Part shown: positions 38,787 to 61,254 of the stretch, in pieces
Layout of the letters: every line of letters starts with the position of its first letter
How positions within the stretch are numbered: position 1 is the stretch's first letter
Virus record (IMG/VR): IMGVR_UViG_2850808358_000005
Strand: one strand, 5' to 3'
Source of the DNA: a virus
Taxonomy: Duplodnaviria; Heunggongvirae; Uroviricota; Caudoviricetes
DNA length: 64,000 nt
Notes under the pieces: generated by a model
The model's input: only the letters and a program-made list of their open reading frames with translations
Told to the model about the DNA's origin: nothing
Database searches by the model: none
Made by a program: the position numbers and the translations under genes

Positions 38787-38829
38787 TGAGGTGTACTGGC
38801 AATAGCGGACACTACCATTTGTTCTTTTT

Positions 38830-39648
38830 TTAAGCAGCCATCTGATGATATTTTTCCCTGAAGGCTGCCGGGGAGATATTCCCCAGACGAGAGTGACGAC
38901 GCTGACGATTGTAGAAAATCTCAATGTATTCCCGTATTACTGAGATGGCTTCATCCCGGTTATTAAAACGATAGTGGCTCAGGCTCTCATTTTTCAGCGT
39001 TCCCCAGAAGCTTTCCATCGGAGCGTTGTCGTAACAGTTACCTTTACGCGACATTGATGTTTTCAGACCAAACTGCTCCTGTATGACCCGGTAATCGTAT
39101 GCGCAGTACTGTGAACCTCGATCAGAGTGGTGGATTAGCCCGGCAGGTGGGCGCTGGCTCCTGAGCGCCATAAACAGGGCTTTACCTGTCAGCTCTTTTG
39201 TCATGCGCTCTCCCATGGCGTAGCCGACAATTTCGCACGTATAAACATCTTTGATGCCAGCGAGGTACAACCATCCCTCCTGTGTGGCAACATACGTCAG
39301 GTCCGCCACCCAGACCTGATTTGGTGCTGTAGGAGCGAACGTCTGGTTCAGCAGATTTGGCGCAACTGGCAGATTGTGGTTCGGGTTCGTAGTCGCTCTG
39401 AACTTGCGTTTCTGCTTACAGCGTAGCCTTAGCTCCTTACGAAGACGTGCCAGTCGGTCACGACCAACGATGATGCCATTCTCTGCCAGCTCCGTCTGGA
39501 GCCGCCGGGTTCCATATGTTTCGCGAGTGCGGATATGTGCCACCTTAATCTCCTGTTTTAGCCGCTCATCACTTTGTTTTCTGTCTGAGGGTTCATGCTG
39601 TACCCGGTTGTAATAACCGCTCCTGGATACACCAAATACCTGACACAT
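38830..39648 (-). CDS. IS600 transposase OrfB
   Basis: Near-identical to the other OrfB copies. Confidence 0.85.
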   Translation of the reverse strand: MCQVFGVSRSGYYNRVQHEPSDRKQSDERLKQEIKVAHIRTRETYGTRRLQTELAENGIIVGRDRLARLRKELRLRCKQKRKFRATTNPNHNLPVAPNLLNQTFAPTAPNQVWVADLTYVATQEGWLYLAGIKDVYTCEIVGYAMGERMTKELTGKALFMALRSQRPPAGLIHHSDRGSQYCAYDYRVIQEQFGLKTSMSRKGNCYDNAPMESFWGTLKNESLSHYRFNNRDEAISVIREYIEIFYNRQRRHSRLGNISPAAFREKYHQMAA

Positions 39649-39683
39649 CGCTTCAATGGGAAATTGTTGTCGCCATTGTTCGA

Positions 39684-39986
39684 TTAACGCGTATTTTTCA
39701 GCGACTCCTGTGCAAAATACGCTGTTGCTTTTTTTAATATATCTCGCTCAAGGCGAGCTTCATTTAACGCCTTACGCAGTTGCAGAATTTCAGATTCCAG
39801 TTCAGCCACCGTGCGGGAACCAGGAGTACCGAGCCCTTTTCTGGCGGCGGTAACCCATTGTCCTAAAGTGCCTTCAGGAAGGGATAATCGGGAAGCGCCT
39901 TCACTGATCGAAAGTTGATTTTCAAGAACCGTTCTGACAGCTTCGGCTTTGAACTCTTTAGAGTAACGTTGGGTTTTTCTGCTCAT
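39684..39986 (-). CDS. IS600 transposase OrfA
   Basis: Near-identical to the other OrfA copies. Confidence 0.85.
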   Translation of the reverse strand: MSRKTQRYSKEFKAEAVRTVLENQLSISEGASRLSLPEGTLGQWVTAARKGLGTPGSRTVAELESEILQLRKALNEARLERDILKKATAYFAQESLKNTR

Positions 39987-40050
39987 TATTAGCTCCTTCT
40001 GATGCCATTCTATTTCAGGAAGGAGTGTCCGTTAAACTCAGGCTACCTCA

Positions 40051-40718
40051 GTGTCATTTTGCGCGGCTGCCAGTGTATTGAGCAAATTACCAACACCAGA
40101 AAAATAAGGCGAATAAGTGCTTTCTGCCGCCTTTAACTCTCCTGGAGTTGCCTGCAATTCATCAGCATTTTTCTGTTTCTCTACAACATTACGAGCCATC
40201 ATGCCAAAGCCAAACGGCCCGGCAACGCCCATAACCGCAAGTTTTGTCCCCCACGATACGGTGGTTTTAAACAGGTTGTTTAATCTCGAAGTGGTCGTCC
40301 GTAGCGTAGAATTGATCTGCTTGTAAGTTTTCAGCGTCTGTTTGGCGTTTTTCCCCAGCCCGCTGAGGTACTTATCAAACATCGTTTCGCCGCGACCTTT
40401 ATAGTTGCTCACCAGCGAATCAGGTGTTTTCCCGCTGCCAACAAAGCGCCATTTTTCATCCCTTAAACGTCCATCAGTGGAAGCAGCCAGAACTGGCGCG
40501 GGTGAAGATGGTTTCCTGGGAGCCTGATTGGCTTCTCCGCCTGTGGTTGTCTGCCAAGAGCCACCTCCCGGACCGGTATTTGAAGGTATTTTAAGCGGCG
40601 TACCGGCAGGGCCAATCATCAGTCCGTTGCGATACTTTTCAAATATCGCCTCAAGCCGCCTGAGGTGTTCTTCATTAACATCCAGCGTCAGAACTGGCAT
40701 CTGGTTACCAGCCATCAC
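40051..40718 (-). pseudogene. phage structural gene (possibly tape measure N-terminus), C-terminally truncated by IS600 copy 3
   Basis: 223 native codons then 3 IS-derived codons and a stop; last gene of the structural operon before the IS. Confidence 0.35.
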
Positions 40719-40945
40719 AATACTCCTGCGGGATTTTTGAATTTGAGCAGCTCACGAAACTGAGCTGCTGTTTTTACATTTAGGCCGGAATCTGCACAGA
40801 TGTCTCTGAATCCGGCTCCGGCTGAGTAGTCGAGGATGTCGCTGATGACGTGTTCGCCGTCGCGCCAGAACTGGCGGCTGATTTCAATGTCGGCAATGAA
40901 GCGATCCATTCCGTAAGATTCAATAACGAGCATTGAGTGCTCCAT
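40715..40945 (-). CDS. small phage structural/assembly protein, hypothetical
   Basis: Start placed at internal Met MEHSMLV (track ORF extends to 41191). Confidence 0.25.
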   Translation of the reverse strand: MEHSMLVIESYGMDRFIADIEISRQFWRDGEHVISDILDYSAGAGFRDICADSGLNVKTAAQFRELLKFKNPAGVL

Positions 40946-40991
40946 ACTCCATTGACCACATCCATAGTCCCCTTCGCCTGCTCCGGTGAAT

Positions 40992-59263: not shown

Positions 59264-59438
59264 TTTGTTCTTCCTCTTCGTCTTTTATTTCGTGATATGA
59301 GTAATTGCAGTAGTTAAAGAAAATATCTTTTGCTTCGTCATGTATTTCATCAGGCGTCGCATCATCATCCACTTCGAATTCATCCTCGAAATCTCCACCG
59401 GCTATTCCCGTTTCAATAATAATTTTGAACTTTCGCAT
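59256..59438 (-). CDS. small highly acidic protein, hypothetical
   Basis: 60 aa from MRKFKIIIETGIAGGDFEDEFEVDDDATPDEIHDE...; about one third Asp/Glu. Confidence 0.35.
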   Translation of the reverse strand: MRKFKIIIETGIAGGDFEDEFEVDDDATPDEIHDEAKDIFFNYCNYSYHEIKDEEEEQNG

Positions 59439-59484
59439 TTCACTACCGCCCTTTCGGGCCTGAGGGATCCCCACAAAATTACTG

Positions 59485-59989
59485 CTAATAAACCAGCACC
59501 ATATTTCGGTAGGTTCTGGACAGATGGTTTAGAACTGTGCTCAGTACTGTTCGTCTTAAAATAAGTGGCGAGTGTCGAAGAACATTCTTCGCTAACGTCA
59601 GATATGAGATAACCCGCCGGGATTTAATGCTGTTAGCCTGATATTTCAGGTGTAACCCTTTATTTTCAGCGTGATAACCGAGTAACCACATTACGATAGT
59701 GCTCAACGTTGCCAGCAGACTCAGAACCAGAATTCTTCCTGTTGAACGACTTTTGCTGGCCCGAAGACCAAATCCGAAGCGCCCGTTCTTTTCATCACGA
59801 AAGTTTTGCTCTATCTGCATTCACCGACTGTATAACTTGATGATTTCTCGCGCTCTGAAGTCATTTGTACTGCTGAAGATCAACCAGGCTTCTTTTGCTG
59901 ATTTGCTCTGTTCTTTGTCTGTTTTGTTTAAACCACTCTGACCTTTCGAACGTTTCTTTTTTCGCCCTTTTGCCGATTTCTTATAGGTG
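59485..59989 (-). pseudogene. IS10-like (IS4-family) transposase gene fragment, C-terminal ~155 codons with internal stop
   Basis: YKKSAKGRKKK...SAKEAWL...YSR*MQIEQNFRDEK...GFGLR parallels IS10 transposase (YKSRSKGRKNQ...SAKEPWIL...SKRMQIEETFRDLK...GLGLR); in-frame TGA at 59821..59823; N-terminal part absent from the window. Confidence 0.55.
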
Positions 59990-60032
59990 TGAGGTGTACT
60001 GGCAATAGCGGACACTACCATTTGTTCTTTTT

Positions 60033-60851
60033 TTAAGCAGCCATCTGATGATATTTTTCCCTGAAGGCTGCCGGGGAGATATTCCCCAGACGAGAGTGAC
60101 GACGCTGACGATTGTAGAAAATCTCAATGTATTCCCGTATTACTGAGATGGCTTCATCCCGGTTATTAAAACGATAGTGGCTCAGGCTCTCATTTTTCAG
60201 CGTTCCCCAGAAGCTTTCCATCGGAGCGTTGTCGTAACAGTTACCTTTACGCGACATTGATGTTTTCAGACCAAACTGCTCCTGTATGACCCGGTAATCG
60301 TATGCGCAGTACTGTGAACCTCGATCAGAGTGGTGGATTAGCCCGGCAGGTGGGCGCTGGCTCCTGAGCGCCATAAACAGGGCTTTACCTGTCAGCTCTT
60401 TTGTCATGCGCGCTCCCATGGCGTAGCCGACAATTTCGCACGTATAAACATCTTTGATGCCAGCGAGGTACAACCATCCCTCCTGTGTGGCAACATACGT
60501 CAGGTCCGCCACCCAGACCTGATTTGGTGCTGTAGGAGCGAACGTCTGGTTCAGCAGATTTGGCGCAACTGGCAGATTGTGGTTCGGGTTCGTAGTCGCT
60601 CTGAACTTGCGTTTCTGCTTACAGCGTAGCCTTAGCTCCTTACGAAGACGTGCCAGTCGGTCACGACCAACGATGATGCCATTCTCTGCCAGCTCCGTCT
60701 GGAGCCGCCGGGTTCCATATGTTTCGCGAGTGCGGATATGTGCCACCTTAATCTCCAGTTTTAGCCGCTCATCACTTTGTTTTCTGTCTGAGGGTTCATG
60801 CTGTACCCAGTTGTAATAACCGCTCCTGGATACACCAAATACCTGACACAT
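60033..60851 (-). CDS. IS600 transposase OrfB
   Basis: 272-aa ORF, near-identical to the other copies (one substitution, GARM versus GERM). Confidence 0.8.
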   Translation of the reverse strand: MCQVFGVSRSGYYNWVQHEPSDRKQSDERLKLEIKVAHIRTRETYGTRRLQTELAENGIIVGRDRLARLRKELRLRCKQKRKFRATTNPNHNLPVAPNLLNQTFAPTAPNQVWVADLTYVATQEGWLYLAGIKDVYTCEIVGYAMGARMTKELTGKALFMALRSQRPPAGLIHHSDRGSQYCAYDYRVIQEQFGLKTSMSRKGNCYDNAPMESFWGTLKNESLSHYRFNNRDEAISVIREYIEIFYNRQRRHSRLGNISPAAFREKYHQMAA

Positions 60852-60886
60852 CGCTTCAATGGGAAATTGTTGTCGCCATTGTTCGA

Positions 60887-61190
60887 TTAACGCGTATTTT
60901 TCAGCGACTCCTGTGCAAAATACGCTGTTGCTTTTTTTAATATATCTCGCTCAAGGCGAGCTTCATTTAACGCCTTACGCAGTTGCAGAATTTCAGATTC
61001 CAGTTCAGCCACCGTGCAGGAACCAGGAGTACCGAGCCCTTTTCTGGCGGCGGTAACCCATTGTCCTAAAGTGCCTTCAGGAAGGGATAATCGGGAAGCG
61101 CCTTCACTGATCGAAAGTTGATTTTCAAGAACCGTTCTGACAGCTTCGGCTTTGAACTCTTTAGAGTAACGTTGGGTTTTTTCTGCTCAT
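60887..61190 (-). pseudogene. IS600 orfA, frameshifted after codon 4
   Basis: T-run at 61177..61182 is T6 versus T5 in copy 3, giving MSRKNPTLL-stop. Confidence 0.7.
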
Positions 61191-61254
61191 TATTAGCTCC
61201 TTCTGATGCCATTCTATTTCAGGAAGGAGTGTCCGTTAAACTCAGGCTACCTCA

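Follow-up and report, generated by a model that had tools for sequence, protein, structure and literature searches.

IS600-marked deletion junctions in an ipaH-bearing prophage of Shigella

The DNA considered here is a stretch of 64,000 nucleotides (the window) from the Caudoviricetes record IMGVR_UViG_2850808358_000005, in which two prophages of a Shigella chromosome lie one after the other. Prophage 1 begins before position 1 and extends to approximately 33443; the integrase gene at its end (32237-33313) is intact. Prophage 2, an ipaH-bearing element of the Rac-SA53/pPE4 type, occupies approximately 33476 to 63396, between pphA and yebY. Self-BLAST and inspection of the ends identified four copies of the insertion sequence (IS) IS600 in the window, with more than 99.4% mutual identity. 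Two of them, c3 and c4, join gene fragments that are not contiguous in related phages, and it is almost certain that they are real deletion scars. The four copies, together with the fragments flanking c3 and c4, are as follows.

29693..30957, minus strand: IS600 copy 1 (c1), 1265 bp; flanks GCT/GCT; simple insertion in the AAA_24 ATPase gene of prophage 1
36212..37475, plus strand (opposite to the other copies): IS600 copy 2 (c2); flanks TTC/TTC on the plus strand; simple insertion in the DUF4376 gene
37788..38786, minus strand: frameshifted remnant of a side tail fibre gene, beginning at codon 135; left flank of c3
38787..40050, minus strand: IS600 copy 3 (c3), orfA then orfB on the minus strand; flanks CGG/GTG, no target duplication; marks the tail-region deletion
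40051..40715, minus strand: N-terminal part (approximately 222 codons) of a tape-measure-like gene, annotated as lytic transglycosylase; right flank of c3
59456..59989, minus strand: last 534 nt of ISSfl1 (IS4 family), coding for the C-terminal part of the transposase; YREK motif, internal stop; left flank of c4
59990..61254, minus strand: IS600 copy 4 (c4), 1265 bp; flanks GTG/CAC, no target duplication; marks the early-region deletion
61255..61608, plus strand: final 117 codons of prophage 2's AAA_24 ATPase gene; right flank of c4

IS600 copies and the junctions of c3 and c4

All four copies measure 1264-1265 bp and end in imperfect terminal inverted repeats (TGAGG...CCTCA); the element (c3) shares 99.8% identity over 1264 nt with records annotated as 'IS3-like element IS600 family transposase'. 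Its two genes, orfA (HTH_Tnp_1 domain, 100 amino acids (aa)) and orfB (rve domain, DDE, 272 aa), overlap in the -1 frame at an A7G slippery run. Open reading frames (ORFs) of 100 aa and 272 aa are found in c2 and c3, where the slippery motif reads TTAAAAAAAG. In c1, a run of A8 for A7 at the frameshift site (approximately 30641-30648) fuses orfA and orfB into a 385-aa ORF, which would encode a constitutive OrfAB transposase if the run is real; it may be a long-read homopolymer error. In c4, a run of A6 for A5 puts orfA out of frame.

The first-pass annotation of the window had described c1 and c2 as insertions with clean 3-bp duplications, splitting genes that can be rejoined in frame, and this proved correct. 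Removal of c1 with one GCT restores an AAA_24 ATPase ORF of 365 aa, and removal of c2 with one TTC restores a DUF4376 ORF of 207 aa. Since a 3-bp match arises by chance only once in 64 cases, both duplications are meaningful. The c2 insertion is not found in sister strains, in which other simple insertions of IS600 occur, one each at loci L024, L026, L028 and L051, with the duplications AAA, CAT, TAT and TGG; together with c1 and c2, six simple insertions with a 3-bp duplication are thus known in the prophage. Two of these independent insertions entered near-alike targets, CAT/TTATCCTGC (L026 4674-5937) and TAT/TTATCCTGA (L028 12098-13361), a similarity that hints at a target preference of IS600.

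Inspection of the ends also bore out the lack of target-site duplications at c3 and c4. The left flank of c3 is a fragment of a side tail fibre gene whose BLASTP matches to P0001 and P0002 begin at residue 135; the intact gene normally has a phage_tail_N domain. An intact homologue (L059) reads through the corresponding point as ATCACGG/GCCGTTGC (continuing GCCGTT). On the right, the truncated structural gene that the first-pass annotation had noted is tape-measure-like and retains approximately 222 of the 691 aa of intact proteins of this kind. Its ORF runs on to a stop at 40038 within IS600, giving a hybrid product of 225 aa, and an intact tape measure gene (L016) is unbroken at this point, GCTGA/GTGTCATT (also read as GCTGA/GTGTCATTT). 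The two flanks have the same order and orientation as in the intact phage, where they are separated by approximately 10.1 kb in pPE4 and approximately 11.4 kb in the ETEC1706 prophage. Between the two points these relatives carry the remaining two thirds of the tape measure gene, the baseplate genes and a tail fibre gene together with its assembly gene; the deletion also took codons 1-134 of the second tail fibre gene. The earlier statement that most tail genes were removed stands with the caveat that the loss is not complete: sheath and tube genes remain in prophage 2.

At c4, the left flank had been called an IS10-like transposase fragment. This was approximately right, as the element belongs to the IS4 family, and it can now be named as ISSfl1, with 99.6% identity over 534 nt to an annotated copy (translation LYSR*MQIEQNFRDEK). 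The outer end of the fragment meets phage DNA at the equivalent of pPE4 11398, just upstream of the DUF7167 gene. The right flank is indeed the 3' part of the ATPase gene. Intact ISSfl1 (L024) is continuous at the left point, ATAGGTG/TAAAAATG, and the intact ATPase gene of prophage 1 in the window is continuous at the right point, GGTGAA/CACCTCGG. Here too the flanks keep the order and orientation of intact relatives. Roughly 10 kb separates them there and comprises, besides the rest of ISSfl1 and the first 248 codons of the ATPase gene, the Ea22-like, replication, ydaT, cro/cI and kil/Rha genes as well as gam and the gene for exonuclease VIII. The proposed loss of the early and immunity region is thereby supported, as replication, cro/cI and recombination genes are all missing in comparison with the relatives.

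Because intact relatives are continuous at every junction point, no shift of the IS termini can yield duplications, and the first-pass suggestion that corrected termini might reveal matching ones does not hold. What is decisive for c3 and c4 is that their flanks are non-contiguous in relatives, rather than the missing duplication alone.

Sister alleles and age of the deletions

The losses were defined by comparison with pPE4, the Escherichia coli ETEC1706 prophage and CP026836.1 from Shigella boydii (PMC12817139); they amount to approximately 10-11.4 kb at c3 and roughly 10 kb at c4. In its flanking DNA, CP026836.1 is 99.8-99.9% identical to the window, and it is without IS600 at both the tape-measure point of c3 and the ISSfl1 point of c4. 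It continues beyond the equivalent of window position 40050 into the rest of the tape measure gene and the baseplate genes, and at the c4 site (L024) it has full-length ISSfl1, replication genes, cro and cI. The DNA lost at c3 and c4 thus survives in the population at one side of each event, and variants with the intervening DNA, which the first-pass annotation had recommended looking for, do exist to that extent. The same allele, which is without c4, contains an ISSfl1-associated inversion: two inverted ISSfl1 copies flank an inverted block of replication genes, from ydaT to DUF977 (L024 3055-8526).

Both c3 junctions recur unchanged in AFGE01000038.1, PSSR01000002.1 and CP026845.1 (loci L018, L020, L039), and the hybrid 225-aa ORF is present on 18 contigs, including at least 13 short-read assemblies whose 7.15-kb contigs end just inside the IS. 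Both c4 junctions are identical in CP026846.1 (L026). Strains that have neither c2 nor, next to ipaH, prophage 1 show the c3 junctions and the left one of c4, so the deletions predate both. In PSSR01000002.1 the left junction of c4 is kept, minus 2 bp, and the right flank lies 1.59 kb further in, within int. The missing TG falls exactly at the IS end (ATAGG/TGAGG at L028 7993, as against ATAGGTG/TGAGG in the window, at 59988-59991, and in CP026846.1) and could be due to slippage or to a sequencing difference.

Sister genomes and related prophages hold further IS600 arrangements. In addition to c4, CP026846.1 has a second IS600 in direct orientation (copy X) approximately 0.8 kb away, a simple insertion with a CAT duplication. 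Elsewhere in the same prophage (L026 16548-17811), an inverted IS600 without duplication joins the equivalent of tail fibre position 38334 to that of 51432, with the loss of all head-tail genes. At L018/L020 4407-5670, IS600 without duplication joins the portal gene to an IS4 element. In CP026824.1 (L051 7186-9671), an IS600 split by an IS30-like element is a simple insertion in the ATPase gene with a TGG duplication. CP026875.1 (L025 4919-6182) shares this right junction exactly but has an early gene in place of the left flank and lacks a duplication; from these sequences, the two appear to be the precursor and product of an IS600-adjacent deletion. A similar early-region scar is present in a related, Qin-like cryptic prophage of many E. 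coli genomes, where an IS30-interrupted IS600 lies between a DUF977 fragment and a truncated exonuclease gene (L060, FORC 064, 6987-9861).

Routes to the deletions

Deletion between homologous IS copies is the accepted cause of gene loss in Shigella (PMC7373316). For c3 and c4, homologous recombination between pairs of IS600 copies in direct orientation is, with moderate confidence, the probable origin. Two insertions of the same orientation would have entered the tail fibre gene (CGG) and the tape measure gene (GTG) in the case of c3, and ISSfl1 (GTG) and the ATPase gene (CAC) in the case of c4, each with its own 3-bp duplication. Recombination of these 1.26-kb direct repeats would then have excised the interval of approximately 10 kb and left one hybrid copy, whose flanks would mismatch because its two sides derive from different insertions. 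One IS copy, no duplication, collinear flanks and a missing interval, as found at c3 and c4, are the form expected of such a deletion. The frequent insertion of IS600 in the prophage and the two-copy arrangement of CP026846.1 count for this route; on our analysis, c4 together with copy X would be exactly the configuration that the two-copy model needs. From the observed junctions, their collinearity and recurrence and the intact alleles, we infer a two-copy intermediate and a recombination step as the likeliest route. The description of c3 and c4 as recombination scars in the first-pass annotation is accordingly retained as far as deletion junctions in prophage 2 are concerned, and is softened as to recombination, since adjacent deletion gives the same product.

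Several observations weigh against recombination between two copies. For neither event did the search turn up a genome that carries IS600 at both junction sites. The predicted precursor of c3 would hold the junctions ...GCTGAGTG + TGAGGTGTAC in the tape measure gene and IS600 end ...CTACCTCA + CGGGCCGTTGCGG in the tail fibre gene, and that of c4 the junctions IS600 end ...CTACCTCA + GTGTAAAAATGCC in ISSfl1 and ...GGTGAACAC + TGAGGTGTAC in the ATPase gene. Three of these four gave zero matches in exact-pattern scans of collections with few Shigella genomes, which makes for weak evidence; the real left junction of c3 also had zero matches in such a scan of species-representative genomes, few of which are from Shigella. 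A BLAST search of 5,426 complete E. coli genomes with both junction regions returned none with either junction or a precursor, which also makes the two junctions lineage markers within Shigella. A C-terminal tape-measure fragment of approximately 470 aa, sought as a trace of the precursor, was not among the best 120 matches listed, which are full or near-full length (580-691 aa). A chimeric IS600 copy could not be recognised, because in the alignment the copies differ almost solely by private single-nucleotide polymorphisms (SNPs). Finally, in two comparisons (c4 of the window with PSSR01000002.1, and L051 with L025) one junction is kept and the other has moved, a pattern that is more economically explained by one-step, transposase-mediated adjacent deletion.

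In such an adjacent deletion, which we regard as a possible but less probable origin of c3 and c4, a single IS600 that had entered one of the junction sites as a simple insertion attacks a further site on the same molecule. The interval would be lost in one step, through intramolecular or one-ended transposition or an IS dimer, and with neither a second insertion nor RecA. The junction shared with PSSR01000002.1 fits this mechanism, as does the simple insertion of CP026824.1 beside the new left flank of CP026875.1, and it requires no two-copy intermediate; none came to light for either c3 or c4. At alignment column 447 a SNP is common to c3, c2 and the inverted copy at the large deletion of CP026846.1; this suggests that an IS600 copy has been active locally, which would also favour adjacent deletion. 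However, each pair with a common anchor is equally well explained by an extra insertion followed by recombination, and an extra direct copy is indeed seen (copy X, L026). An ancestral simple insertion at the c3 or c4 sites was likewise not found, and adjacent deletion and recombination lead to products that cannot be told apart. Transposition of IS3-family elements is of the copy-out/paste-in kind, with a circular intermediate, and does not in itself delete flanking DNA; the elements for which adjacent deletions are much better documented are IS1, IS10 and IS903.

A more far-reaching proposal is that the IS600 transposase itself is eroding the prophage by one adjacent deletion after another, each one-ended and starting from a fixed IS end, and not through RecA recombination between pairs of copies. 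We consider this unlikely. If it were true, the sisters would represent a natural nested-deletion series that always spares ipaH (from CP026824.1 to CP026875.1, and from c4 in CP026877.1/CP026846.1 to PSSR01000002.1), and a field example of an IS3-family deletion pathway that is little documented outside plasmid assays.

It is very improbable that the flanks were swapped, rather than brought together by loss of the DNA between them, through exchange with an IS600 outside the interval (inversion, translocation or recombination of prophage 1 with prophage 2). The many IS600 copies and IS-bounded inversions of Shigella chromosomes (PMC7819885, PMC8072062) would allow such an exchange, and the right flank of c3 and the left flank of c4 both read GTG, with CAC at the right of c4 as the reverse complement. 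Yet both flanks of each copy belong to one prophage and keep the order and orientation of intact relatives. The coincidence of GTG is due to chance: intact ISSfl1 reads GGTG/TAAAAATG, as against GTG/TCATTTTG in the intact tape measure gene. Since these intact sequences show that the two GTG flanks were never adjacent, a reciprocal exchange between c3 and c4 (GTG/GTG/CAC) is ruled out. Strains with prophage 2 alone beside pphA have c3 and the left junction of c4, which excludes an exchange between the two prophages as the origin of these junctions.

The source assembly differs from three concordant sisters by homopolymer-length indels only, four of them in 7.1 kb. These concern A6/A5 in orfA of c4, G3/G4 at 62401, and positions 41018, 42247, 42732 and 42945 in the head-tail genes. 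The G3-for-G4 change splits the int gene of prophage 2, and the head-tail indels break the sheath gene into three ORFs; pseudogene calls that rest on such errors are therefore unsafe. The single-base differences in CP026877.1 look like uncorrected long-read errors. Errors confined to homopolymers point to a long-read assembly with reads spanning the 1.26-kb repeat. A collapse of two IS600 copies during assembly, or misplaced termini, is therefore a practically negligible explanation in spite of these length errors, as long reads cross the repeat, shifted termini create no duplication, and the junctions recur in independent assemblies (for c3, three long contigs and, for the tape-measure side, at least 13 short-read runs; for c4, CP026846.1).

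Tandem setting, retained cargo and known systems

Apart from the deletions, three features define the setting of prophage 2.

34052..35767, plus strand: ipaH gene, 571 aa, LRR_TTSS and NEL E3 ligase domains; retained cargo at the tail-fibre end of prophage 2
33444..33475, no strand: att core of the attP-like junction where the int end of prophage 1 meets the ipaH end of prophage 2
63397..63428, no strand: att core at the right end, the junction of prophage 2 and the chromosome on the yebY side

Window positions 33184-54128 and 47299-64000 are 100% identical to CP026877.1 (GCA_002950035.1). The att core is approximately 30 bp long (GACCGAATACGATTCCTGT...), with phage arms on both sides at the middle site and on one side only at the right site. 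The attP-like region (33380-33540) and its counterpart on the yebY side (63334-63494) mark a tandem of two different mosaic phages, whose integrase regions are 98% identical (61255-63428 and 31300-33475). pPE4 matches the entire int-gp70 spacer across the attP-like junction. Since sister strains carry prophage 2 alone, with ipaH adjoining pphA, it appears that prophage 2 was resident and already defective when prophage 1 integrated into its hybrid att site.

Both prophages contain a cluster of four tRNA genes (Met, Arg, Thr, Gly) between the Q-like and lysis genes, at 15713-16023 and 53512-53822. The DUF4376 gene, a 59-aa ORF and ipaH form a cassette (window 35768-37837; loci L029-L038), found at the tail-fibre end of prophages, both lambda-like and myovirus-like, at no fewer than five sites on Shigella chromosomes, with ipaH alleles that differ among the copies. 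One of these loci, L038 (UFYX01000005.1), has the same ipaH and the same pphA site and was considered as an intact form of prophage 2; it was rejected because its tail module is unrelated at the nucleotide level.

Other rearrangements of prophage 2 concern its head region. An IS4 element at 47143-48567, absent from CP026836.1, has entered the head gene region as a simple insertion, flanked by a duplication of 12 bp (CACCAAATGCTC). An end portion of an IS110-family element (918 nt, 49326-50243) is joined internally to a truncated trkH at 50243/50244, and it is at this junction that prophage 2 lost its terminase and portal genes, which sister strains retain. IS600 is not involved and there is no IS end at this point; the deletion there therefore has another origin than those at c3 and c4. 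A 158-aa ORF at 40715-41191 had no database record on look-up, and its start codon is probably wrong.

Lambda tandem polylysogens have the arrangement attL-phage-attP-phage-attR. The locus resembles them in its two prophages with nearly identical int regions and in the site that joins them, whose core is bordered by phage arms to left and right. It differs from them in that the two prophages are different mosaics, one of which was already defective when the other arrived.

The closest complete relatives of prophage 2 are of the Rac-SA53/pPE4 type (KU052037.1, PP818812.1 and the ETEC1706 prophage at ttcA), with 96% nucleotide identity over 7.1 kb of head-tail genes; window 40054-47140 is 96.2% identical to pPE4 33737-26663, and the nin/Q region matches too. 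The gene order, from nin/Q through lysis, head, tail and tail fibres to DUF4376, is common to all. The relatives are 47-52 kb long and complete, whereas prophage 2 measures approximately 30 kb, including approximately 7.6 kb of IS DNA. It also has a different integrase and att site and carries ipaH.

The loss of baseplate, fibre, repressor, replication and recombination genes fixes prophage 2 in place, with ipaH, the Q/lysis block and the tRNA genes retained. The locus shows at the level of single bases how an ipaH-bearing prophage becomes locked into the Shigella chromosome. As the junctions are derived and common to sisters, they can be used as a marker set for S. boydii-type lineages, and the results are also useful for annotating the ipaH prophage locus at pphA-yebY.

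IS-bounded deletions and defective virulence prophages are well described in Shigella (PMC7373316, PMC7819885). Prophage 2 may be likened to the defective Stx prophage of S. dysenteriae type 1 (PMC7819885; McDonough and Butterton 1999 as cited there), which is likewise lambdoid with virulence cargo, has lost most structural genes, is not inducible, is conserved across strains and has IS600 adjoining its cargo. The two differ in the phage concerned, in the cargo (stx as opposed to ipaH) and in the site (sapC-ychK as opposed to pphA-yebY). For the Stx prophage, tandem amplification and deletion between flanking IS600 copies have reportedly been shown experimentally, whereas prophage 2 is known from its sequence alone.

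More broadly, IS600 is one of five IS that have expanded in all Shigella, together with IS1, IS2, IS4 and IS911 (PMC7373316). These expanded elements interrupt genes and leave deletions (Hawkey et al. 2020, PMC7373316; Yang et al. 2005 as cited there), and the scars described here, each with one IS copy, no duplication and non-contiguous flanks, are of the same kind. Unlike in the surveys (PMC7373316), in which a fixed deletion was rarely tied to a particular IS, two events are mapped here to the base, with intact alleles in sister strains. The locus is a clean, base-resolved example of the already known IS-driven decay of Shigella genomes and involves no new principle.

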